The notes below the pieces were generated by a model. The model was not told the DNA's origin. It did no database searches and saw only the letters and a list, made by a program, of their open reading frames with translations. A program made the translations under genes and the position numbers. DNA of 64,000 nt. Source: a virus. The DNA lies in IMG/VR virus record IMGVR_UViG_3300032291_002524, positions 42,316-106,315 of that record. One strand, given 5' to 3'. The stretch's first letter is position 1; each line of letters starts with the position of its first letter. Below, piece after piece: positions 33,129 to 47,612 of this stretch.

Positions 33129-33216
33129 GGTGGGGTTGCAGAGTGGTTGAATGCATCGGTCTGCAAAACCGAAAAACTGAAAACGTTTCACGTGGGTTCA
33201 AATCCCACCTCCACCT
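33129..33216 (+). tRNA. tRNA-Cys(GCA) with an atypical long variable arm
   Basis: TCGGT-CTGCAAA-ACCGA; U73; 19-nt variable region. Confidence 0.85.
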
Positions 33217-33267
33217 CAAATTTATAGTTCAAATATTGATTTTTACTCTTATTGAGTATTTATTTAT

Positions 33268-34987: not shown

Positions 34988-35068
34988 GCCGAAGTGGTGG
35001 AACGGTAGACACGAATGCCTTAGAAGCATTTGCTATATGGTGTGTGGGTTCGAATCCCACCTTCGGTA
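34988..35068 (+). tRNA. tRNA-Leu(TAG)
   Basis: AATGC-CTTAGAA-GCATT; variable arm present. Confidence 0.92.
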
Positions 35069-35079
35069 CAAATATGAAT

Positions 35080-35163
35080 TGGCATGTCGCTCAGAGGCCG
35101 AGAGCATCAGGCTGTTAACCTGACTGGGAAACCACACCGTAGGTTCGAATCCTACCATGTCAG
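35080..35163 (+). tRNA. tRNA-Asn(GTT) with an atypical long variable arm
   Basis: TCAGG-CTGTTAA-CCTGA; TGG-GAAA-CCA arm. Confidence 0.87.
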
Positions 35164-35206
35164 CAATAATTTTTCATAAGTCAAATATTTGTTTTATATT
35201 TGTAAT

Positions 35207-35791: not shown

Positions 35792-35923
35792 AATTAGATG
35801 GGCGTAATGAGGGAGGGTCCCGAGTCCCCAAGACACCACGGTCCATAACCATTTGGATGCGAGACGTTGTAAGGTAGTCTAATCCGTCCTGAACGGTATC
35901 CGGTTCGAGTCCGGCTCTGATTA
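35792..35923 (+). ncRNA. Diverged tRNA-shell RNA with a large internal insert
   Basis: Acceptor AATTAGA/TCTGATT-A (covariant with AGTCAGG/CCTGACT), T-arm CCGG-TTCGAGT-CCGG. Confidence 0.6.
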
Positions 35924-35999
35924 TGAACTAACCCAGTTTTCACAATGAAGGCCAATACCTTCGGAGTGGGGGTGACGGTCAGGAAAGACTGACAAACAT

Positions 36000-36112
36000 A
36001 GTCAGGTGGCGGAATGGTAGACGCTTAAGGTCATAAGGTATAGTACATAGCTCCGTATTAAAGAGTCAGTTGCCGAATCTATACCATACAGGTTCGAATC
36101 CTGTCTTGACTG
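36000..36112 (+). ncRNA. tRNA-shell RNA copy 1 (63-nt cargo)
   Basis: AGTCAGGTGGCGGAATGGTAGACGC...ACAGGTTCGAATCCTGTCTTGACTG. Confidence 0.85.
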
Positions 36113-36248
36113 CAGACTCTCATCTATAGCTGTGTAGAGAACTGATGAGTATTGTTGGAGGACACAGACCTCACGAACATTGGTTTAGGGCAAACGTAGG
36201 ACCCCTATCACAAAGAGTACCAACCCATAGGGTAAAGCTCTTTAAAAT

Positions 36249-36326
36249 AGTCAGGTGGCGGAATGGATAGACGCAACCACATAAGTGGTCAAACCGGTAC
36301 TACAGGTTCGAATCCTGTCCTGACTA
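36249..36326 (+). ncRNA. tRNA-shell RNA copy 2 (27-nt cargo, 4-nt loop in place of the anticodon loop)
   Basis: Same 5' and 3' shell; ACCAC-ATAA-GTGGT. Confidence 0.85.
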
Positions 36327-36466
36327 CGCTCCTTTCTGGCGTTTTTAACAATAGGACGTGGTACAGATGCACCAGATGGATGTACCAACCCAGCATCAGG
36401 GACTTGGCAAGTTTTCGGTAGCCAATCAGATGTAACCGATGACAGCTCGGAAAGTACGAGCAATAT

Positions 36467-36535
36467 ACCGAAGTAGTGTATGGAGCACGTTGGGAGGCTT
36501 TTCCCAAAAGAATTGGGTCGCAACCAATCTCGGTA
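36467..36535 (+). ncRNA. Degenerate tRNA-like cloverleaf
   Basis: ACCGA/TCGGT, GTG/CAC, TTGGGA/TCCCAA and ATTGG/CCAAT arms; no canonical anticodon loop. Confidence 0.55.
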
Positions 36536-36541
36536 CAAAAT

Positions 36542-36653
36542 AGTCAGGTGGCGGAATGGTAGACGCAAAGATGTTGTGAGTTGGTAGGTAATAACTACTT
36601 GGATGGTGTCCACATTAGAACTCTCTATACAGGTTCAAGTCCTGTCCTGACTA
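36542..36653 (+). ncRNA. tRNA-shell RNA copy 3 (62-nt cargo)
   Basis: Same shell, unrelated interior. Confidence 0.85.
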
Positions 36654-36667
36654 CAAAAAATAAAGAA

Positions 36668-37090
36668 ATGAAAATAACTAAACATAATATACGTGAAATA
36701 ATTGAAAATTATCTTAAATCTAAAAAAATTAAGTATAGTATTGACGATGAGGATAACTTTGGATTGGTGTACGAAATTTACGTAGGGTCATTAGAATGTT
36801 ATTTACAGGTTGAATATGATTTAGAAAAAATAGAAGATGATTATGTTGTTGCTCAATTATTTACGGAAATTGATGATTTGGGTAATTCTCTTTACAGTGT
36901 AACATGGGAAAACGACGAACATCATGATTCCATTGAAAGCGAAATCGATACATTAATTGATGAAACTAAACAGTTAAATAGGGCCGTTATAAAAATTGGT
37001 AAAAAAATTGAAGATATTATTGAAATATGTGAGGAACATGGGTTATCTTCCGAAGATTTTATTCAAATTAACTATGATTTCAATAAGTAG
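36668..37090 (+). CDS. Acidic hypothetical protein
   Basis: Start moved to the ATG after the shell RNA. Confidence 0.65.
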   Translation: MKITKHNIREIIENYLKSKKIKYSIDDEDNFGLVYEIYVGSLECYLQVEYDLEKIEDDYVVAQLFTEIDDLGNSLYSVTWENDEHHDSIESEIDTLIDETKQLNRAVIKIGKKIEDIIEICEEHGLSSEDFIQINYDFNK

Positions 37091-37643
37091 ATTTATAAAA
37101 AATCTTACCACCAACGTGAACCATTTCTCTTATTTCTTCTTCTGAATATTTTTCGGACAATGGGGTCCCTACTATAAACAAATTACCACCAACGGATTGA
37201 AGGTTTCCAAATGATTCGATATTAGTTCCTTGTAAACTCAAAAAACCACCAACGGATTGAAGGTTTCCAAGGAATTCGATATTGGATTCACGTAAATCCA
37301 ACCAGTCACCAACGGATTGAAGAGCACCGAGGGAGTTGATTTTGGTTTCATATAAATCCAAATAACCACCAACTGAGCGAAGGTTTCCAAGGGATTCGAT
37401 TTCGACATATCGTAAATCCAAATAACCACCAACAGAGCGAAGGTTTCCAAGGGATTCGATTTTGGTATCCATCAAATTCAAATCACCATCAATTGTATAT
37501 GGTGGATTTCCTTCGGATTCCAGATATTCTTGCAGAAAATTCCAATCATTATTAAAATATTTGAATGATGGAATATGGTGAACTTCTGGTTTCTCTTGCT
37601 CGATTAATCTTTTATATTGTGATTCGGTGATAATTATTTTCAT
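37080..37643 (-). CDS. 20-aa-repeat LRR-like protein, paralogue A
   Basis: SLGNL.SVGG.L.L repeats; conserved cap HIPS.KYFNNDWNFLQEYLESEGNPPYTID. Confidence 0.85.
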   Translation of the reverse strand: MKIIITESQYKRLIEQEKPEVHHIPSFKYFNNDWNFLQEYLESEGNPPYTIDGDLNLMDTKIESLGNLRSVGGYLDLRYVEIESLGNLRSVGGYLDLYETKINSLGALQSVGDWLDLRESNIEFLGNLQSVGGFLSLQGTNIESFGNLQSVGGNLFIVGTPLSEKYSEEEIREMVHVGGKIFYKSTY

Positions 37644-38317
37644 TGCATATAAATATTACCACTAACATTAACCATTTCTCTTATTTCTTCTTCTGAATAT
37701 TTTTCGGACAATGGAGTTTCACGCAACATCAAATCACCACCAACGGATTGGAGATTTCCTAAAGAGTTGATACTAGTTCGATTTAGATATAACCCATCAC
37801 CAACGGATATTAGACTCCCGAAGGATTTGAGTTGACTGTTGAAGGATACTGTTAAATAACCACCAACGGATTTAAGATTTCCAAGGGATTCGATATTACT
37901 TCCTCGTAAATCCGCCTTACCAATAACATATTGAAGATTTCCAAGGGATTCGATATTAGTACTGCTTAAACTCAAATCACCACCAACGGAGCGAAGATTT
38001 CCAAGGGATTTGATAATAGTCCCATATAATTCCAAATTACCACCAACGGATTGAAGATTTCCAAGGGATTCAATGTCATTTTCAATTAATATCAAATCAC
38101 CACCAACGGAGCGAAGATTTCCAAGGGATTTGATTTTGGTATCTATCAAATCCAAATTACCATCAATTGTATAAGGTGGATTTCCTTCGGATTCCAGATA
38201 TTCTTGCAGAAAATTCCAATCATTGTTAAAATATTTTAATGATGGAATATGAAGAACCTCAGGTTCTTCCTGTTCTATTAATCTTCTATATTGAGATTCA
38301 GTTATTATTATTTTCAT
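37640..38317 (-). CDS. 20-aa-repeat LRR-like protein, paralogue B
   Basis: Same caps with more repeats. Confidence 0.85.
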   Translation of the reverse strand: MKIIITESQYRRLIEQEEPEVLHIPSLKYFNNDWNFLQEYLESEGNPPYTIDGNLDLIDTKIKSLGNLRSVGGDLILIENDIESLGNLQSVGGNLELYGTIIKSLGNLRSVGGDLSLSSTNIESLGNLQYVIGKADLRGSNIESLGNLKSVGGYLTVSFNSQLKSFGSLISVGDGLYLNRTSINSLGNLQSVGGDLMLRETPLSEKYSEEEIREMVNVSGNIYMQ

Positions 38318-38799
38318 TACATATAAATATTACCACCAACCTGAACCATTTGCATTATTTCTTCTTTGGAATGTTTTTTAGATATCTGTGTCTTACGTAA
38401 AAACAAATTACCACCAACGAATTGAAGGTTTCCAAGGGATTGGACTTCAGTTTCTTCTAAATTCATATCATGACCAACGGAGCGAAGGTTTCCGATAGAT
38501 TTGATATTGGATTCAAATAAGACCAAACCACCACCAATGGATTGAAGGTTTCCAAGGGATTCGATTTCGACATATCGTAAATACAAATCACCACCAACGG
38601 TTTGGATATTTCCAAGAGATTTGATTTTGGTTCCATATAAATAGAAATCATCATCAATTGTGTATGGTGGATTTCCTTCAGATTCCAAATATTCTTGCAG
38701 AAAATTCCAATCATTATTAAAATATTTGAATGATGGAATATGGATAACATCCAAGTGCACAGTTTCTTCTTTTAATATTTTCTTAATCAAATATTTCAT
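38317..38799 (-). CDS. 20-aa-repeat LRR-like protein, paralogue C
   Basis: Start moved to MKYLIKKILKEE after the TATTTAT box. Confidence 0.85.
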   Translation of the reverse strand: MKYLIKKILKEETVHLDVIHIPSFKYFNNDWNFLQEYLESEGNPPYTIDDDFYLYGTKIKSLGNIQTVGGDLYLRYVEIESLGNLQSIGGGLVLFESNIKSIGNLRSVGHDMNLEETEVQSLGNLQFVGGNLFLRKTQISKKHSKEEIMQMVQVGGNIYM

Positions 38800-38865
38800 T
38801 AAATATAAATAGTAAAGGAATGATATAATTTTGGATTTGTAATAGAAATTTGTTATCTTTGAATT

Positions 38866-39156
38866 ATGAATAAAGTGATATTCAAATATAGTACACTTCC
38901 TAATTCCGTGTTTCAATCCAATTTTGTTATACCGATACCAAAGGGAGCGGAGATTTTAACAATTCAAGTTGACAAAAAAAATAACCACCCAACTATTTGG
39001 GCGTTGGTTGATATTAACGAACCTCTCGAAGACCGAAAATTTGAATTGGTTGGGACAGGTCATACATTCACCATGGACGATTCCAAAAAATATATTGGGA
39101 CATATCAGTACCAAAATGGTGAATTTGTTGGACATCTTTTTGAAGTAATTAGATAA
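38866..39156 (+). CDS. Conserved small phage protein
   Basis: IPKGAEILT.Q...IWALVD...GTGH...YIGT.Q....V.HLFE. Confidence 0.75.
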   Translation: MNKVIFKYSTLPNSVFQSNFVIPIPKGAEILTIQVDKKNNHPTIWALVDINEPLEDRKFELVGTGHTFTMDDSKKYIGTYQYQNGEFVGHLFEVIR

Positions 39157-39162
39157 ACCGTT

Positions 39163-39582
39163 ATGGAAAAAATATATATAACCAAAACCGTAAAATTTAA
39201 GGATTCAATTAATGAATTGGATTTTGTAAATAGAGAAGCGTTCGGATGGGAAGATTGGGACCGCCACGATTTTATTGAAATTAATAAAGGGAATGTAAAC
39301 AGAGATGATGAACCTATTGAGATTAATTCTATGATTGAATTGCTCCAAAAAGCAAAAGATGCTGGTTCTACTCACGTAAACATTAATTACTATACTGACC
39401 ATCATGGGTATGACATTTCTGGTGTTGAGATGAGAAAATCCACTCAAGAAGAAATTGATAATTACGAGGAATTCAAATCTTCAATTAAAGATATTGACGC
39501 TCAAATCAAAAAACTTAATGGTGAGTTAAGTAAATTAACTACCGAGAAAATGGAACTTTTTAGAAAAAGAAATAAACAATAA
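39163..39582 (+). CDS. Hypothetical protein
   Basis: 139-aa ORF with a C-terminal coiled coil. Confidence 0.65.
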   Translation: MEKIYITKTVKFKDSINELDFVNREAFGWEDWDRHDFIEINKGNVNRDDEPIEINSMIELLQKAKDAGSTHVNINYYTDHHGYDISGVEMRKSTQEEIDNYEEFKSSIKDIDAQIKKLNGELSKLTTEKMELFRKRNKQ

Positions 39583-39589
39583 GATTATA

Positions 39590-39832
39590 ATGAAAAAAAT
39601 ATTTTACTTAATTATGTTAGGTACATTGTCAGTATCTTGTACCGAAAACCAAAGAGCCAAAAATTTTGGTGGAACAGAAGAAGTTCGATTAAAGAAAAAT
39701 GAAATTCTCTTGAATGTGACTTGGAAGGGAGACCAAATGTGGATTTGTACTAAAGACACCTCAACAGGAACATCCTATTTCCGTGAAAAATCTAATTGGG
39801 GAGTAATGGAGGGTACCATTATCTTAAAATAA
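39590..39832 (+). CDS. Small lipoprotein
   Basis: Lipobox LSVS-C. Confidence 0.75.
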   Translation: MKKIFYLIMLGTLSVSCTENQRAKNFGGTEEVRLKKNEILLNVTWKGDQMWICTKDTSTGTSYFREKSNWGVMEGTIILK

Positions 39833-39839
39833 GATTATT

Positions 39840-40298
39840 ATGTTAAAAATAGATTTATCAGACATTGCTGACATTACTAGGTCGATATCCGAGTATGAAA
39901 TGTTAACCAATTCATTCACTCAACGAGGAACTAAAGAAGAAAAGGAACTTTTGACAGATTTTTGGAATAAAAAGGTTGTTAAAAGGGAAACATCGACTTG
40001 GATGACCTCACATGAATATGAACAATGGAAAGAAATTAATTTTCATGTCGTCGCTCAAACTTGGGGTAACACCTCATGTGGATGGCAAGGTATTGGTGGA
40101 GCTTCAATGACAAAAGCATATACCGTTATTATTGAAAATGGTTGGGCCGGGTTGGTATGTGTCTTCTATTTCGGTAAATTGGCTTACATGTGTGAAATGG
40201 ATGACAAATACAAAGTGTATGTCGAAAAAGGGTTTAGAGGATTACCAGGTCATGGTGATTGTCATGAAAAATTAACCGTGTTATATAAATCAAAATAA
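39840..40298 (+). CDS. Hypothetical protein
   Basis: QTWGNTSCGW.GIGG.SMT.AYT motif. Confidence 0.65.
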   Translation: MLKIDLSDIADITRSISEYEMLTNSFTQRGTKEEKELLTDFWNKKVVKRETSTWMTSHEYEQWKEINFHVVAQTWGNTSCGWQGIGGASMTKAYTVIIENGWAGLVCVFYFGKLAYMCEMDDKYKVYVEKGFRGLPGHGDCHEKLTVLYKSK

Positions 40299-40338
40299 TT
40301 TTGTAATTCCAAAAAAAAAGTATTATCTTTGTATTGTT

Positions 40339-40620
40339 ATGGCAAAACAACTAAAAATTTGGAACGGTAGGGGACATGGTCGAAAATATAGTAGAGGTCA
40401 TGTTTATGTTGCGGCATACACACAAAAACAAGCAGCAGAATTGGTAAGTAAGGCATGTTTTGGTGAAGAATATCCAGATTTAGTTTCGGTGAATGAAATT
40501 AGAACTTATTACAGTTCGGGTTCGTGGGGCAATTCGATGAATGGTATCGAACCAACAGAACCTTGTGTTTACATTCAAGAAACTAGTTTTTCAAATGAAA
40601 AACCTGTAAGAATTATATAA
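40339..40620 (+). CDS. Hypothetical protein
   Basis: Follows a TATCTTTG box. Confidence 0.65.
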   Translation: MAKQLKIWNGRGHGRKYSRGHVYVAAYTQKQAAELVSKACFGEEYPDLVSVNEIRTYYSSGSWGNSMNGIEPTEPCVYIQETSFSNEKPVRII

Positions 40621-40630
40621 AAGATAATAT

Positions 40631-40713
40631 TGTGATAATGGTGTAGGGTCGGTCTCATGAGCCGAGTTGGTAGATATACCCCCCGTGTGGTTCGAATCCA
40701 CAAATCACAACCA
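40631..40713 (+). ncRNA. D-armless tRNA-like RNA with a CAT anticodon and long variable arm
   Basis: TGTGAT/ATCACA-A-CCA, TCGGT-CTCATGA-GCCGA, TGTGG-TTCGAAT-CCACA. Confidence 0.65.
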
Positions 40714-41242
40714 AAGACCCCACGATAACAGATAACTCGTCTGTTTGTATGTGAACCCGACTAGAAGTCTTCAGGGCTATGGGGGATAGATACATAGAGT
40801 GAAACACATATAACCCCTCATAAACGGGGTTAAGCAAGAAGGGGGAAGGTCCTTTTACGTATGTGGGAATCTCAAATTAAAAACGAGTCCCCCATTATGG
40901 GTAAAGGGGGTTAGGGACCTTAAGTGGTCGTGACATAACCCACAAGTTGTAGAAATACTGGACAATTCTACAATACACGCTCTATCTTCCGAGCGAGACT
41001 GTCACGTAACTATGATGGTAGGGTGGAGATGTCCTGAGGGTAGCACTGAACGCTAATATGAAAAGCCTATGACGCACATGATTAGGTAAGTACTTTTGGA
41101 CGGAGTGTGAGAGTATAGGCCTACCTTGGATGGTTACTATGTTCCAACGAATCTTGGGAATATGGGTAGGAATATTATGTCGCCAACTATAAAACTAAAA
41201 GGTCTTCCCAAAATGGCGTGGGGGTGATTCAAGACCTTTTTT
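40714..41242 (+). ncRNA. Candidate large structured ncRNA (about 500 nt) ending in a terminator-like hairpin
   Basis: No credible ORF, high GC, many stems (AACCCC/GGGGTT, TTGTAGAA/TTCTACAA, AAGGTCC/GGACCTT, GCCTAT/ATAGGC, CCTACC/GGTAGG). Confidence 0.6.
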
Positions 41243-41358
41243 AATACTGAAGTGGCTCAATTGGTTAAAGTGTCGTTTCATTATCGGAAGATTATCAGTT
41301 TGATTCTCTTTTCCTACACTAATTGATTTTTTATCCTATAAGACTTATAATTAAATTA

Positions 41359-42624
41359 ATGGAAACGTTATCAAATATAGGAAACAATATTGTTGGTTCC
41401 GAGATTATCAAAATCTCACAACAAATTAAAGAGATTTCAAAGACAACCCCCGTGGCAAATCTAACCATTGGTGATTTTAACTCAAAATTATGGCCAATTC
41501 CAAGTGGTCTCAGAAATAGAATTATTGACTCATATAACGAAGATTTAACCAATTACCCCAACTCAATGGGCGAGATAAATCTTCGTGAATCAATTTCAAA
41601 ACACATCAAACATCAATTTGGTCTTAATTATTCTACTGATGAGATTTTGGTAGGTGGTGGAGTTCGTCCTTTGATTTATACCGTATATAAATCTACGGTA
41701 AATTCTGATGATGAGGTTATTTACCCAACACCATCTTGGAATAACAACCACTATTGTTTCTTACACGGAGCGTCCAAACAGGAAATTCAGTGCTTACCTG
41801 AAAACTCATTTTTTCCTACTGTTGAAGACATTGATAGTAGGATAAATGTCAACACATCATTAATTTGTATTTGTTCACCACAAAATCCAACAGGTCGTGT
41901 AATTAATCCTGAAGTTTTAAAAGGTATATGTGAATTAATTGTTAAGGAAAATAAATTTAGAGAAACCCGAATGAATTCAAGACCGTTATATTTGTTCTTT
42001 GACCAAATATACTCTGACTTGAGTTTTGGTGATAATTTTGTTCATCCTTTACATGTTTGTCCTGAAATTAGGGATTATTTAATTTGTGCTGATGGTATTT
42101 CCAAATCACTTAACGCCACGGGTGTAAGAGTTGGTTGGGTTTTTGGTCCAAAAGATGTTATTGGTAAGATGAGTGAGATATTATCACACATCGGAGCATG
42201 GGCACCAAAAGCGGAACAACATGCCGTATCCCGTTTTATCGATGAGTCATATGATGAATATCAAAGTCACTTGACATACGTTAAAAATGAATACGAAACC
42301 ATCTCAAATGAGATTTGTGGAAAGTTTCAAGAACTTAAAGATAGGGGATACAGTGTTGATTATCAAAAACCCGAAGGTGGGATTTATATTTCAGTTTATT
42401 TGGGTTACGTTCACCAATTCCCATCAACTGAAGAATATATTTCATTCTTAATTAACAAATGTGGACTAGGGATTGTACCATTTGAGTATTTTGGTTCAAA
42501 CCAAAAAGGGTGGTTTAGAATATCGATTGGTAATATAGCTTCATTAAATTTGAACTTTATTAAGGAAACAATTGAAAATTCTGTATTAAAATCAAAAAGT
42601 TTTGTAAATTCTATGGTCATGTAA
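41359..42624 (+). CDS. PLP-dependent aminotransferase, class I/II
   Basis: SPQNPTG, DQIY, GISKS..ATGVRVGW, FRIS. Confidence 0.92.
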   Translation: METLSNIGNNIVGSEIIKISQQIKEISKTTPVANLTIGDFNSKLWPIPSGLRNRIIDSYNEDLTNYPNSMGEINLRESISKHIKHQFGLNYSTDEILVGGGVRPLIYTVYKSTVNSDDEVIYPTPSWNNNHYCFLHGASKQEIQCLPENSFFPTVEDIDSRINVNTSLICICSPQNPTGRVINPEVLKGICELIVKENKFRETRMNSRPLYLFFDQIYSDLSFGDNFVHPLHVCPEIRDYLICADGISKSLNATGVRVGWVFGPKDVIGKMSEILSHIGAWAPKAEQHAVSRFIDESYDEYQSHLTYVKNEYETISNEICGKFQELKDRGYSVDYQKPEGGIYISVYLGYVHQFPSTEEYISFLINKCGLGIVPFEYFGSNQKGWFRISIGNIASLNLNFIKETIENSVLKSKSFVNSMVM

Positions 42625-42679
42625 TTGACTTTTCGTAAAATTGACTATATTTATATCACAAACAAAATTACAACATTCA

Positions 42680-42886
42680 ATGAGAACCATTTTCATATTC
42701 GGAACACCAGCAACAGAGGGTGATACTTCCAAAGTGGAGATGGGATAATATTGTCTTTTAGACCTTAAAGAAACCCATCTCCAAAAAAGATGGGTTTTTT
42801 TTGTTACCTATTTGGCAAATCAAAAATAATGTTGTATCTTTGTATTGTTGTTGATGATAACAACATAACAAAAGAGTTCTTTGACA
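42680..42886 (+). promoter_or_regulatory. Leader-peptide attenuator, internal sigma-A box and boxA before tRNA array 2
   Basis: 22-aa uORF 42680-42748 ends in GGAGATGGG, complementary to CCCATCTCC of the terminator 42771-42802; GTTCTTTGACA at 42876-42886. Confidence 0.72.
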
Positions 42887-42970
42887 TATTGGAAACCAAA
42901 AAAAAAATAAATTGGTTAGGATAACCAACTTTTTTAAGGGTTCGTAATATTTATCATTAAATGATATATT

Positions 42971-43876
42971 ATGTATAAATGTGGATATTGCGAAAAAGAT
43001 TTTAAGAATAAGGGAGGTTATGTAAGACATAATAAAACCTGTAAAATTGTTGATAATATTAGAGATGATGTTTACCGATTATATGTTGATGATTTGTGGA
43101 GTATAAAAGACATTGAAAAAAAATATAAGATTGGCCATAATACGGTCAATCAGATTTTAGGAGATTCAAAAAGAACACAATCTGAAGGTAATAAAACAGC
43201 TCGTAAGAAATATCCTGAAAATTTTAAACATACTGAAAAATCTAAACAAATTTTAAGGGAGAAACGATTAAAATTTATGAAAGATAATCCCGACAAAACT
43301 GCTTGGAGATTAAAGAATATATCATACCCTGAAAAATTGTTTTATAACAAAGTTATTGAATTAGGGTGGGATAAGAAGTATTCAATTAAACGAGAATACT
43401 CAGTATTTCCATATTTTATTGATTTTGCGTTTTTAAATGAAAAAGTTGCCGTTGAAATTGACGGTTCTCAACACCTTCTTCCTGAACGAAAATTAAAAGA
43501 CAGTGAAAAAGACGATTTATTAATTTCAAATGGATGGAATGTTATTAGGATATCTGAATATAAAATAAAAACCGAAATTGAAAATGTCTTTGTTGAAATA
43601 TTACAAGTTTTAAATAAAAATGTTAAACCTAAATTACATAGAGTTGGAATCGTATTACACCCAAAGAAAAACCAAAAGAAAAAACGAGAAAAAAATGGAT
43701 TGACAAAAGAACAACTAAATTCTATTAAATCTCAAAGAAAAATTAACAGACCTGATTATAAAACATTAATTAACGAAGTAAAAGAATTTGGTTTTAATAA
43801 AACAGGTAAAAAATACGGGGTTAGTGATAACGCGATTAGAAAATGGGTTAAATTTTATGAAAAATATGAAAATTAA
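42971..43876 (+). mobile_element. DUF559/Vsr-like endonuclease with zinc finger and HTH, probable homing endonuclease
   Basis: YPEK, YFIDFAF..KVAVEIDGSQH...D..KD..L...GW.VIRI. Confidence 0.8.
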
Positions 43877-43901
43877 TCTTATCTTTGTCCTATAATTTTA
43901 A

Positions 43902-43975
43902 GGTCCTGTGGAGAACGATAGCTATCTCATCACCCTTTCACGGTGGAGTATCGGGGGCGGCACCCGACAGGACTA
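43902..43975 (+). tRNA. tRNA-Glu(TTC)
   Basis: TCACC-CTTTCAC-GGTGG; deviant T-loop GGCGGCA. Confidence 0.85.
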
Positions 43976-44031
43976 CAAAAAAAAAAGATTTGGTAAATTA
44001 AAAAATTATCATTATCTTTGAATTATCAAAT

Positions 44032-44124
44032 AGTCAGGTGGCGGAATGGTAGACGCTTTTGGATTCTCTGTCCGATACCTTTGTTAAGGCAAAAAGCTTA
44101 CAGGTTCGAATCCTGTCCTGACTA
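44032..44124 (+). ncRNA. tRNA-shell RNA copy 4 (43-nt cargo)
   Basis: Same shell, directly after the TATCTTTG box at 44013-44020. Confidence 0.85.
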
Positions 44125-44198
44125 CAAAAATATTGGGTCCCGTACGGAATCGGGTGATGAGTGAAGGGTTGCCGACTCTGTTTCACCGCTCAAAGCAT

Positions 44199-44290
44199 AG
44201 TCAGCTAGGAAGAAGGTCGGTTCGAGTCCGATGGAAGGTCATGGATGACGGGTAGCTCCCTGCAGAGAGGTTCGAATCCTCTCCTGACTA
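44199..44290 (+). ncRNA. Shell variant with two T-loop hairpins and no D-arm
   Basis: AGTCAG...TCGG-TTCGAGT-CCGA...AGAGG-TTCGAAT-CCTCT-CCTGACTA. Confidence 0.7.
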
Positions 44291-44293
44291 CAA

Positions 44294-44660
44294 AGTGTTG
44301 TTCCCTTGATAAAGGAAATGTAAAGATTAGTGATATTACTTGAATTATGGAAAACATAATCGTACACTACAACACTGAGGGATTATCATCCTCACTTTCT
44401 GTATCTCACGTGGAAAAACTTCTTACGGAAGCGGTAAAATGGAGATTAAGGATTCGCAATCCTCTCTGACGTAAGATGTGAAACCACACTGATTATTAAA
44501 ACTGCTTGTTAAAGTGATTTACGCTAGTTGGAAATAACTGGTATTGTCTAAACCTTAATCAGTCTCCCAAGGGTGAGCAAGTTGTAATACAATACAGAGT
44601 GAACAGTACGGCTGCGAATTGTGAGTGTTACAACTGAGTGCAGATGGAAACACCTAGTCA
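44294..44660 (+). ncRNA. Unassigned structured non-coding block, one or more RNAs
   Basis: AGTGTTGT/ACAACACT, CTGATTA/TAATCAG, AGTTGTAA/TTACAACT and TCTTACG/CGTAAGA stems; no ORF. Confidence 0.5.
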
Positions 44661-44681
44661 TGTGTATAAACTAACTAACAT

Positions 44682-44862
44682 AGTCAGGTGGCGAAATGGT
44701 TAGACGCTACCAGCGAGAGGTACTCCACCCATGGTAAATAACCCTATTTAGTGATTCAAATAGGTGCTGGGTTATTGGACACACGATTGAAACATACCAT
44801 CAAATGTGTTAGACGTGACCGATGTGCGAGAGAGGTTACAGGTTCGAATCCTGTCCTGACTA
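44682..44862 (+). ncRNA. tRNA-shell RNA copy 5 (130-nt cargo)
   Basis: AGTCAGGTGGCGAAATGGTTAGACGC...ACAGGTTCGAATCCTGTCCTGACTA. Confidence 0.85.
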
Positions 44863-44913
44863 CAAAATTCAGGATTAATTACCCTGAAATAATGGAAGGT
44901 TCGAAACTTCCGA

Positions 44914-45003
44914 TTGATTATGGTGTAAAGGCGCACAGCGAACTGAGTAGGTCGGTGGACCGGAAGGAACGCGGGATTAAGGTTCGAATCCTTATTAATC
45001 AGC
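44914..45003 (+). ncRNA. tRNA-like RNA with an expanded anticodon domain (different shell)
   Basis: TTGATTA/TAATCAG, D-arm GTG/CAC, T-arm TAAGG-TTCGAAT-CCTTA. Confidence 0.6.
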
Positions 45004-45010
45004 AAAATTA

Positions 45011-45085
45011 GCTTCTGTAGTTTAGCAGGTAAAATAACTGACTTGTAATCAGTAGTCCCCAGTTCAAATCTGGGTGGAAGCTCCA
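45011..45085 (+). tRNA. tRNA-Thr(TGT)
   Basis: ACTGA-CTTGTAA-TCAGT; CCA. Confidence 0.9.
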
Positions 45086-45092
45086 AACAAAT

Positions 45093-45167
45093 AGCGGGGT
45101 AGAGCAGAGGTAGCTTACAAGGCTCATAATCTTGTGGTCAGTGGTTCGAATCCACTCCCCGCCACCA
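45093..45167 (+). tRNA. tRNA-Met(CAT), initiator-like (A1:C72 mismatch)
   Basis: CAAGG-CTCATAA-TCTTG; CCA. Confidence 0.85.
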
Positions 45168-45279
45168 AATAATTCAATAGTGTAAACAAGTAATAGGCCG
45201 GCACATGATGGTCTCTCTATATTAAGAGTAGAGTTAAACTCAGCCACAAAGAGGAACGGTAAGGCCTCCTTGAATTATT
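45168..45279 (+). ncRNA. Unassigned structured RNA, about 110 nt
   Basis: 10-bp closing stem AATAATTCAA/TTGAATTATT. Confidence 0.45.
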
Positions 45280-45286
45280 AACAAAT

Positions 45287-45428
45287 AACTCTATAACAGA
45301 ATTAATTCTGTGAAATTGGGTAAATGAGGGTTAAATGGTTTGACAATCCTGAGACGCGTTTGGAATAAACCGTTAGAGCATTTAACAAGTAGTTTACATT
45401 GTAGGTTCGATTCCTACTAGAGTTACCA
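45287..45428 (+). ncRNA. tRNA-ended RNA with a large interior
   Basis: AACTCTA/TAGAGTT-A-CCA, T-arm GTAGG-TTCGATT-CCTAC. Confidence 0.65.
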
Positions 45429-45522
45429 AAAAGTTATGTGTTAATACATCTGACGGCAATTAGATATTAATATGTTAACTTCTATCGTTCTTAATCTTTG
45501 CCGAGATAAAGGGTGGTAGTTA

Positions 45523-45595
45523 TTCCTGTAAGTGTGATGGCAAAACACCGGACACGGAGTCCGGAGTCGGAGGTTCGAGTCCCCCACAGGAACCA
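45523..45595 (+). tRNA. Atypical or pseudo tRNA (anticodon CGG or ACG, no U33)
   Basis: TTCCTGT/ACAGGAA, CCGGA-CACGGAG-TCCGG. Confidence 0.55.
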
Positions 45596-45601
45596 AATAT
45601 A

Positions 45602-45693
45602 TGCAGGTTAGAGTAGAGGACAAACTCACTGGGCTCATAACCCAGAGTCTCTGAAAGGGGACACGTCTGGTTCGAATCCAGCACCTGCTACCA
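45602..45693 (+). tRNA. Initiator-type tRNA-fMet(CAT) with a long variable arm
   Basis: T1:T72 mismatch, CTGGG-CTCATAA-CCCAG (three G-C pairs), GTCTCT-GAAA-GGGGAC arm, CCA. Confidence 0.85.
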
Positions 45694-45754
45694 AAATGTC
45701 GTTCGTACTTGACTCCAATCGATTATTACACTTGTCATGTACGGGCAACTCCAC

Positions 45755-45830
45755 GCGAGTGTCGTATAGTGGCTTATTATGTTAGACTTCCAATCTAAAG
45801 ACGAGATTTCGATTATCTCCACTCGCTCCA
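45755..45830 (+). tRNA. tRNA-Gly(TCC)
   Basis: TTAGA-CTTCCAA-TCTAA; CCA. Confidence 0.88.
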
Positions 45831-45831
45831 A

Positions 45832-46031
45832 AAGAACCTTTCCTTACATAGGACGGATTAGCACCGTTGAAAGACAATCTTTGGCTTCGTGGGAGTATCT
45901 ACCCAATGAAGTATAAATGGCCCAAAGTGTGATGTGATGGACCCTGCTCTGTAGTGCACTTACACCAGGTGAACAGTAAACTATGTTCAGTCAAATCCAC
46001 AACTACGGTGAGCGTAGAAGGAAAGTTTCTT
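45832..46031 (+). ncRNA. Unassigned structured RNA, about 200 nt
   Basis: Closing stem CTTTCCTT/AAGGAAAG; internal hairpins; no ORF. Confidence 0.55.
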
Positions 46032-46105
46032 TTTTAAGTGGACCTTTCAGTTGAAAGGGACCAATCCGAAGTCGTCCTACAAGATTAGAAACGTCTTCGG
46101 CATTT

Positions 46106-46177
46106 GCGGGAGTAGCTCAGGGGTAGAGCGTCTGCTTGCCAAGCAGAAAGTCGAAGGTTCAAATCCTTTTTCCCGCT
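46106..46177 (+). tRNA. tRNA-Gly(GCC)
   Basis: TCTGC-TTGCCAA-GCAGA. Confidence 0.9.
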
Positions 46178-46216
46178 CTGGGTTGGTTTTTGGACCAATT
46201 TATAATATATATAAAT

Positions 46217-46894
46217 ATGGGTAGAAAACCTTACAAATATCATTATCTGTATAAAACTACTAATATGTTAAATAACAAATATTACATTGGGATGCACTCT
46301 ACTAATAATTTAGAAGATGGATACATAGGTAGTGGTGATAGAATTAGAAGAAGTTTGAAAAAATATGGTAAAGAAAATTTTAATTTTGAAATTATAAATT
46401 TTTTTGAAAATAGGGAATTGTTAAAACAAGCCGAAAAAGAAATAATAACTGATGAAATATTGAATGATGATTTATGTATGAACATTTGTTATGGTGGTGG
46501 GGGTGGATATATAAGTCCTGATGGGGTTAAAAAGGGAAGAATAAAAACTGATAAAATTCTTAAGGAGAAATACGGTGAAAATTTTAGAAATGTAATTTTT
46601 AGGCAATACTACGATAATTTATCTGACGAAGAAAAAAAAGAATGGAAGAAAAAAATATCCAAATCTTTGAAAATTTATTATGAAACACATTTGAATTCTT
46701 TTACAGGTAAAAAACATACCGAACTTACTAAAAAAAAGATAGGAGAAAAAAATTCTATTCATCAAAAAGGGGAAAAAAACTCTCAATTTGGAACTTGTTG
46801 GATAACAAATGGTGAAATAAATTTAAAAATTAAAAAATGTGATGTATATCAATATCCTGAATGGAATAAAGGTAGAACATTAAAAAAGAAATAA
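46217..46894 (+). mobile_element. GIY-YIG (Seg-like) homing endonuclease
   Basis: YLYKTTN..NNKYYIGMHST..LEDGYIGSG; GKKHTE.TKKKI. Confidence 0.88.
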
Positions 46895-46942
46895 GGGTCC
46901 GAGGGAGTCCCTGAAAGGAATAAATATCCTGTCCCTATCCAT

Positions 46943-47014
46943 GGTCTATTGGTGAAATAGTTATCATATCTGCCTGTCACGCAGAAGTCCTCGGAGCGTA
47001 ACCGGGATAGACCG
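46943..47014 (+). tRNA. tRNA-Asp(GTC)
   Basis: TCTGC-CTGTCAC-GCAGA; deviant T-loop AGCGTAA. Confidence 0.85.
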
Positions 47015-47082
47015 CAATGAGTAAGAGATACTCAGTAGTCTTTCATCCAAGACTCATTTAACAATGGATGGGGTTAAAAAAC

Positions 47083-47233
47083 ACCACCCTAAGGTAATCG
47101 GTTCGGGATAAAACAGCATCAGGCCTGATGACTGCCGACGTATTGGGCTGACGTTTTCAAGGGGGTAAGACTCCGCAGGGTTACAAACAGGAAACCGGGA
47201 AAAATCTACTTATCCGTAATCTCAGGGTGGGGT
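47083..47233 (+). ncRNA. Unassigned structured RNA, about 150 nt
   Basis: Closing stem CCACCCT/AGGGTGG; no ORF. Confidence 0.45.
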
Positions 47234-47238
47234 AATAT

Positions 47239-47324
47239 AGTCAGGTGGCGGAATGGTAACGCAATGTTTCTAGACGAAGTTCAGCCGGGGGAGGCTGTTG
47301 CAGGTTCGAATCCTGTCCTGACTA
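47239..47324 (+). ncRNA. tRNA-shell RNA copy 6 (37-nt cargo)
   Basis: Same shell; CAGCC-GGGGGA-GGCTG arm; no proper anticodon stem. Confidence 0.85.
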
Positions 47325-47449
47325 CATTGATGGGTGGTTCTTCTCCCTGAACAGGTGGCTTGGTAATCAAGGAACTGAATGTTTTTAGAACATTTGCAGA
47401 AATACTGGTAGAACAGTGAAGATGACGGCTCGGAAAGTACGAGCAAAAT

Positions 47450-47612
47450 AGTCAGGTGGTGGAATTGGTATACACTACCGTTAAGGGCTTAGAGATATGA
47501 TAAGATGTGGAAACGCACCCCTTCCTTGAACGGTTGTCCGATGAATGAATCGGGCTGTGTGATGTAAAGCGCACGGATGCAATCAATACAGGTTCGAGTC
47601 CTGTCCTGACTA
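47450..47612 (+). ncRNA. tRNA-shell RNA copy 7 (112-nt cargo)
   Basis: Shell with compensatory D-stem GTG/CAC; cargo stem ACCGTT/AACGGT. Confidence 0.85.

Follow-up and report, generated by a model that had tools for sequence, protein, structure and literature searches.

We analyzed a 64,000-nucleotide window (bases 42316-106315) of the 106-kb IMG/VR virus record IMGVR_UViG_3300032291_002524, which has a G+C content of 31% and a CheckV completeness of 34%. ARAGORN predicts 28 tRNA genes, all on the + strand between approximately 31.7 and 51.8 kb, with G+C-richer stretches devoid of open reading frames (ORFs) between them. In this region lie eight + strand elements that combine the acceptor, D arm and T arm of a tRNA-Leu, hereafter the shell, with an interior, hereafter the cargo, of 27-131 nt (Table 1). 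The initial annotation of this DNA had listed seven of these elements, all of which are found where it placed them, and had pointed to two diverged relatives at 35792 and 44199. The latter is indeed an eighth copy, whereas the former, whose D domain is different, represents a sister type. Other loci compared with the window are designated below by labels such as L153 or L022.

Table 1. Shell-type elements and the sister-type RNA of the window. R1, score against a covariance model built from shell positions only.
Feature	Position	Strand	Length (nt)	Interior (nt, about)	R1 (bits)	Remarks
Shell copy 1	36000-36112	+	113	63	55.1	RF00005, 35.1 bits
Shell copy 2	36249-36326	+	78	28	76	ARAGORN reports a 2-base 'anticodon'
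Shell copy 3	36542-36653	+	112	62	63.4	Orthologues in L153 and L154
Shell copy 4	44032-44124	+	93	43	73	Directly 3′ of an AT-rich, promoter-like stretch
Diverged copy 5	44199-44290	+	92	42	35	Borderline membership
Shell copy 6	44682-44862	+	181	131	54	Multi-hairpin cargo
Shell copy 7	47239-47324	+	86	36	69.9	
Shell copy 8	47450-47612	+	163	113	50.7	
Sister-type tRNA-shaped RNA	35792-35923	+				Acceptor AATTAGA/TCTGATT, A73; D domain invariant GCGTAATGAGG plus hairpin

A constant tRNA-Leu body around unrelated interiors

The constant shell consists of the acceptor AGUCAGG/CCUGACU, a Leu-type D arm, the T arm ACAGG-UUCGAAU-CCUGU and A73. Searching the window for the 3′ block ACAGGTTCGAATCCTGTCCTGACTA with up to three mismatches returned eight matches, all on the + strand, compared with 0.00 in shuffled sequences. 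The D-arm block GGCGGAATGGTAGACGC has three exact matches (0.03 in shuffles), and a fourth, recovered when up to three mismatches are allowed, corresponds to a real tRNA-Leu at 34996; in the remaining copies this block differs by 1-nt indels or by a compensatory change. The D stem of copy 8 carries GTG/CAC in place of GCG/CGC, a compensatory replacement that had been correctly recognized at the outset. Every copy is on the same strand as the tRNAs, and shell G+C content (0.44-0.54) exceeds that of the genome (0.31). The interiors, whose lengths lie within 1 nt of those first proposed, are self-folding and mutually unalignable, and each cargo is either a singleton or has relatives in other phages only.

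Individual copies depart from this scheme to various extents. Copy 1 bears G73 and a G-U pair in its acceptor and is on these grounds the most decayed of the full copies. In copy 2, the place of the anticodon stem is taken by a helix of 5 bp that ends in a 4-nt loop (ACCAC-ATAA-GTGGT). Copy 5 retains the shell acceptor and has a T arm of sequence AGAGG/CCTCT, with the T-arm-like hairpin TCGGTTCGAGTCCGA instead of the Leu D arm. Copy 7 has the appearance of a class II tRNA, in which a weak arm closed by a 5-nt loop is accompanied by a variable-arm hairpin; ARAGORN reads it as Ser(aga) or Leu(tag), with a residue other than U at position 33 and a mismatched stem.

Shell RNAs do not decode, as a proper anticodon arm (5-bp stem, 7-nt loop, U33 and a purine at position 37) occurs only at chance level: it is present in 1 of the 156 family members with a parsable D arm, compared with 0.5 after shuffling of the interiors, and in none of the window copies. 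Within the window, a 5-bp stem and the 7-nt loop UUCUCUG can be drawn for copy 4, but this loop has U37. ARAGORN calls three of the eight window copies and 36 of the 198 elements of the family set described below, with anticodons that are odd or 2-base in the former, and scattered over many amino acids and in several cases 2- or 4-base in the latter. When introns are allowed, the same program proposes them solely in copies 1 and 8, in each case with mismatched stems. The copies gave no match to Intron_gpI at E values up to 5. Together with these models and with interiors of 27-131 nt, this null result led us to reject intron-bearing tRNAs. Cargo clustering and the anticodon-arm analysis thus bear out the initial description of a constant tRNA top half carrying unrelated, self-folding interiors that lack an anticodon loop. 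The cargos do not align to Leu anticodon arms.

Extent of the family and signals for maturation and charging

The shell-only covariance model R1 separates the seven full copies (50.7-76 bits) from the ordinary tRNAs of the window, which reach at most 45 bits; copy 5 scores 35 bits. The window elements therefore belong to a single AGTCAGG tRNA-Leu-shell family, with copy 5 as a borderline member. The exact 22-nt 3′ block occurs on more than 119 IMG/VR contigs, which is a lower bound. Using the exact 3′ block as seed, we extracted from the loci listed a family set of 198 unique elements (54-191 nt); at a threshold of 47 bits, R1 yields approximately 155 matches in 100 of these loci. Near-complete genomes of 113-271 kb contain zero to four copies each, so that the eight copies of the present fragment represent a high number.

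A survey of prokaryotes with one genome for each of 185,579 species found the 3′ block on only 18 contigs. All are from metagenome-assembled genomes (MAGs), many are short, eight are binned as Bacteroidota, and every occurrence is a cargo-type element. No real tRNA-Leu or other bacterial tRNA of this genome set bears the block, which led us to reject a host origin of the shell. No member of the AGTCAGG family was found among the cultured phages of INPHARED; the matches in Vibrio and Pseudanabaena phages are ordinary or partial tRNA-like stretches (R1 of 34.6 and 13.7 bits). The sole Rfam match to the copies is the general tRNA model RF00005, and no other family matches at E values up to 5. Copies 1, 2, 3, 4 and 7 score 35-45 bits with RF00005 (gathering score 29) because of their shell, and copies 5, 6 and 8 are unmatched. 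Full-text literature searches retrieved no publication describing the family; a 2026 preprint on bacterial tRNA mimics deals with different RNAs (skipping-rope, DUF2693-FD and salivarius-1). The shells thus constitute a very large, phage-restricted RNA family without a dedicated Rfam entry.

The sequences flanking the shells resemble those of real tRNAs in the same loci. U precedes the element at position −1 in 156 of 191 shells and in 165 of 231 real tRNAs, C occupies position +1 in 187 of 191 and 209 of 231, respectively, and the commonest trailers are CAA and CTA in both groups, CCA being encoded in 5 of 191 shells. Because leaders and trailers match those of the real tRNAs of the same arrays, tRNA-type maturation (RNase P cleavage, 3′ trimming and CCA addition), which the initial annotation had predicted, is well supported by sequence comparison.

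The body of the shell is also close to that of a plausible host tRNA. In a Chitinophagia MAG that includes a shell-bearing contig, tRNA-Leu(CAA) differs from the shell by one position in the D arm and one or two in the T arm. Its acceptor, GCCCAGA, is distinct from the AGTCAGG of the shell, whose acceptor sequence is fixed, including the first three pairs A1-U72, G2-C71 and U3-A70, even though the host tRNA-Leu differs and leucyl-tRNA synthetase (LeuRS) does not read the acceptor. E. coli LeuRS requires A73, A15-U48, G18G19, A20a and the contacts that join the D loop to the T loop, and tRNA-Leu variants deprived of the anticodon and variable arms remain active with this enzyme (PMC9976931). 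The expected presence of these positions is largely verified: U8, A14, A15, G18G19, U48 and A73 co-occur in 110 of 135 parsable shells, and A20a is found in 105 of 135. Since the identity positions read by E. coli LeuRS are kept, leucylation of shell RNAs is plausible, and the shell itself would very likely be chargeable with leucine.

Turnover of the cargo and neighbouring elements

The shells are constant while their cargo turns over between phages, as had been predicted: grouping the 198 elements by cargo gives 174 clusters, including 155 singletons. Where related cargos exist (L020/L063, L044/L101 and L085/L094/L114), loops are retained and stems are compensated. The comparison of copy 3 with L153 gives a similar picture, with conserved loops and one compensatory G-C to A-U change in the closing stem. 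Because stems compensate and loops stay conserved, the cargo is under selection.

Whole elements recur in otherwise unrelated surroundings. Copy 3 is near-identical in L153 and L154, with unrelated flanks. Copy 4 shares 100% identity with an element of L022 and 98% with one of L011, identity falling to background level outside 44030-44127, and the 92% identity between copy 5 and its counterpart in L083 is confined to the element. For these three copies, identity drops to background no more than a few bases beyond either end of the element. By this distribution (92-100% identity across phages with unrelated flanks), whole elements behave like cassettes. No exact match to the cargos of copies 6 and 8 was found in IMG/VR. 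A hairpin spacer RNA devoid of shell, located directly 3′ of copy 5 (44295-44380), has 94% identity with a sequence of L020, again between unrelated flanks. Since this shell-less RNA behaves in the same way, the sharp identity edges reflect a general module-wise inheritance and not necessarily recombination in the shell arms.

The sister-type RNA at 35792-35923 contains two plug-in modules that are present in, or missing from, the AGTCAGG shells of other phages (alignment A2). Its alignment with seven relatives shows the two optional modules in a common frame associated with three different acceptor helices. The 40-nt module ACACCACGGTCCATAA...GCGAGA is found inside AGTCAGG shells of L010, L052 and L086, and is missing from L108, L138, L087 and L120. 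Internal T-loop hairpins of the type NNNGTTCGANTCNNN recur in cargos (L111, L117, L136, L033, L043 and L053, as well as RNA2 of phage T5, with which L146 is listed) or replace the D arm, as in copy 5 (44216-44232). Such an additional T-loop may be a functional part common to these RNAs.

Other RNA elements populate the arrays. Two elements composed of a T arm plus a closing helix, at 44873-45002 and 45304-45425 (~120-130 nt), are not called by ARAGORN and have relatives at 72-80% identity in other loci (L019, L031, L067 and L062 for the former; L083 for the latter). The region 45933-45995 matches the Rfam freshwater-1 RNA (RF02979) with 70.1 bits, just below the gathering score of 72 (E value of 7.6e-15), and the surrounding segment 45822-46033 has 76% identity with L078. 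A TGAC-hairpin-GAAAG module is present at 35973-35987, 36440-36454 and 47423-47437 (three occurrences for 0.36 expected). Each lies in an ORF-free spacer leading into a shell, at its 3′ end or close to it; L019 and L083 have similar modules ahead of shells. In copy 3, as in its orthologues in L153 and L154, the element stops approximately 15-20 nt short of the ATG of an ORF (36654-36672 in the window); the three ORFs appear unrelated, and cleavage at the shell would leave very short mRNA leaders. Three tRNAs called by ARAGORN (33129-33217, 35080-35164 and 45602-45693; 85-92 nt) have long extra arms and anticodons for Cys, Asn and Met. These tRNAs or their calls are unusual, as a class II shape is unexpected for these three amino acids.

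Nothing suggests a dedicated partner protein for the shells. Clustering of 1,937 ORFs from approximately 119 loci yielded no protein family present in more than 13 loci, the most frequent neighbours being DUF932, metallophosphatase, terminase and T5orf172 families. A CCA-adding enzyme is encoded in 2 of 18 shell-bearing records and L/F-transferase in none of the 18; the scarcity of phage CCA-adding enzymes fits a reliance on host tRNA enzymes. The ORFs between the window arrays code for an aminotransferase, for DUF559-type and GIY-YIG-type endonucleases and for unassigned products, and include no RNA ligase or synthetase. Two homing-endonuclease-like ORFs lie inside the RNA arrays (42971-43876 and 46136-46894), one of the DUF559/Vsr type and the other resembling the GIY-YIG protein SegE, below the Pfam cut-off. 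Their arrangement recalls that of segB in the tRNA cluster of phage T4.

A candidate natural tRNA scaffold and its alternatives

Several known RNAs share parts of this layout. In the tRNA scaffolds of Ponchon and Dardel, an RNA of interest reportedly takes the place of the anticodon arm, is processed by tRNA enzymes and accumulates stably; these constructs are artificial and use Lys- or Met-type bodies, and the phage family would be their natural counterpart. The transfer-messenger RNA (tmRNA) also combines a tRNA top half with a large interior instead of an anticodon arm, is processed by RNase P and is charged by a synthetase that ignores the anticodon. It differs from the shells in its alanine identity (G3-U70), its reduced D arm, its pseudoknots and its tag reading frame; the shells carry U3-A70 and a complete Leu D arm, and their interiors can be as short as 17-27 nt. 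ARAGORN reported no tmRNA in the window.

The closest precedents are found in phages. RNA1 (144 nt) and RNA2 (125 nt) of phage T5 carry the annotation 'tRNA-like stable RNA with unknown functions' in GenBank AY543070. Like the shells, both lie in a phage tRNA region and possess an acceptor helix and a T arm. RNA1 further has a Leu-type D arm (GCCGGAATTGGTAGACGG), an insert of approximately 80 nt replacing the anticodon arm, and A73; in RNA2, the T arm (GCAGGTTCGAATCCTGT) is nearly the same as in the shells, and an internal T-loop hairpin resembles those of copy 5 and several cargos. However, they have other acceptor sequences, are single copies with no cargo exchange described, and score 10.6 and 27.9 bits with R1 (filters off), compared with 50-76 bits for window copies. 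The species 1 and 2 RNAs of phage T4 (rnaC, 139 nt; rnaD, 119 nt) are small stable RNAs located where the phage tRNA cluster ends, beside a GIY-YIG homing endonuclease. rnaC shares with the shells a terminal T arm (CCGGGTTCGAATCCCGG) and a closing helix, but neither RNA has a Leu-type D arm, and R1 gives 15.5 bits for rnaC and no match for rnaD. The shell layout thus has a precedent in T5 RNA1 and RNA2, and these RNAs and T4 rnaC are design analogues, not detectable homologues. On the biochemical side, a minimalist E. coli tRNA-Leu from which the anticodon and variable arms have been removed is still leucylated in vitro (Larkin et al. 2002, reviewed in PMC9976931). It retains, like the shells, the acceptor, D arm, T arm, A73, A15-U48 and G18G19, but such molecules are laboratory constructs, and the acceptor helix of the phage elements departs from that of host tRNA-Leu.

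We propose, with a probability of roughly 55%, that the elements are natural tRNA scaffolds, in which the Leu-type shell would recruit tRNA maturation, confer stability and probably provide a chargeable end, the interior being an exchangeable effector module. Shell RNA genes would be transcribed within the phage tRNA arrays, and the shell would make the precursor a substrate for RNase P at its 5′ end, followed by 3′ trimming and CCA addition. Folding of the shell into the tRNA elbow would generate a stable L-shaped carrier, from which the interior, replacing the anticodon and variable arms, would project as an independently folding module. Cargo modules would be exchanged between phages as cassettes and would most likely bind host or phage macromolecules in takeover or counter-defence. 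A more specific version, which we advance only tentatively, is a natural 'RNA display': a leucine-chargeable frame matured by the host would present a fast-turning library of effectors, such as inhibitors or decoys against host defence or translation factors, and the near-constant ends of the shell would act as portable homology arms for cassette moves between unrelated phages. If true, this system would be an RNA-gene analogue of integron cassettes.

Several observations weigh against the scaffold interpretation. No dominant k-mer is common to the cargos. The longest stretches of each cargo complementary to other parts of the 106-kb record do not exceed those obtained with shuffled sequences, a marginal 14-mer for the near-palindromic copy 2 being the exception, so the antisense-guide role once considered for the interiors finds no target there; the decoy and aptamer roles proposed with it are hypothetical. 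Given that neither a common motif nor a target emerged, the term effector is deduced from selection and turnover. Minimal members with almost no cargo, such as a 54-nt element in L056, imply that the shell alone may carry a function. Furthermore, the conservation of A73 is inflated because the seed pattern fixed this residue; the unbiased value is 15 of 17 among members found without the seed constraint, and 7 of 8 in the window. Covariation lends weak support to the shell, being limited to 2 of 15 pairs, which both belong to the D stem, as shell helices barely vary in the set, in part because it was seeded on the exact 3′ block. The likeness to a repeat-spacer array suggested by the initial annotation is a separate matter and does not hold, as spacing is irregular, with gaps of 74 nt to 7.4 kb that contain tRNAs and ORFs, and each unit is an independent RNA gene.

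Function could instead reside in the shell, the elements being chargeable, anticodon-less mimics of tRNA-Leu whose interior is a constrained filler that need only fold stably and not decode, a view that we find possible but doubtful. Such mimics could be decoys or sponges for readers of the tRNA top half (a tRNA-directed defence nuclease or toxin, LeuRS or EF-Tu) or leucine donors for a non-ribosomal transferase. This view is consistent with the retention of the LeuRS identity set, the minimal members, a dosage raised by up to eight copies in one phage and the C at +1 conserved as in real tRNAs; in addition, the invariance of the first three acceptor pairs, unlike those of host tRNA-Leu, suggests a sequence-specific reader. 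Conserved loops and co-varying stems in cargo classes would nonetheless be unexpected for filler, as would the spread of intact shell-plus-cargo units between unrelated phages, no nuclease or transferase partner was found nearby, and L/F-transferase is absent from the 18 shell-bearing records. The remaining explanations are less likely than either the scaffold or a function in the shell. We consider it unlikely that shells are mere punctuation, that is, processing signals for RNase P and the 3′ endonuclease that free neighbouring spacer RNAs and mRNAs with defined ends. Cuts of this kind would require only the tRNA top half and could account for the ORF-free, G+C-rich spacers of 74-391 nt flanked by shells, three of which are closed by the TGAC-hairpin-GAAAG module, and for the ATG located a short way downstream of copy 3 and of its orthologues (three phages); yet the real tRNAs of the same arrays would already do the job, and the Leu-specific D arm, the near-invariant acceptor, the conserved cargo loops and the spread of intact units would be left unaccounted for.

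Two further readings appear highly improbable. The first sees the elements as functionless remnants, either decaying tRNA-Leu pseudogenes or by-products of recombination or homing endonucleases, in agreement with the endonuclease-like ORFs within the arrays, the G73 and acceptor wobble pair of copy 1 and the loss of the Leu D arm in copy 5. This is difficult to reconcile with a shell that is intact in hundreds of phages, with conserved tertiary-contact positions, with compensatory changes in the T and D stems and with cargo orthologues conserved across unrelated genomes, all of which argue strongly for purifying selection on the elements. The other holds that they are odd decoding tRNAs, containing introns or pairing a Leu body with non-Leu anticodons that recode or mistranslate. 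In its favor, LeuRS would charge any anticodon, five of the eight copies exceed the RF00005 gathering score, and copy 4 can be drawn with a 7-nt loop. This loop has U37, however, proper anticodon arms are at chance level, the intron models of copies 1 and 8 are mismatched, and the interiors, besides giving no group I intron match, are too short for one.

These elements have a practical consequence for the study of uncultured phages: tRNA finders label some of them as tRNAs with spurious anticodons, which corrupts inferences on tRNA content and codon usage. If the scaffold interpretation is true, the tRNA shape serves tailed phages as a general vehicle for non-coding effector RNAs, a natural counterpart of the engineered tRNA scaffold that suggests a role for the stable RNAs of T4 and T5. 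Very few small RNAs are known from phages, and a large class would be added to them. The huge diversity of the cargos and their cassette-like exchange resemble the signature of an arms race, so that RNAs able to inhibit bacterial defence or translation factors could be drawn from the cargos.

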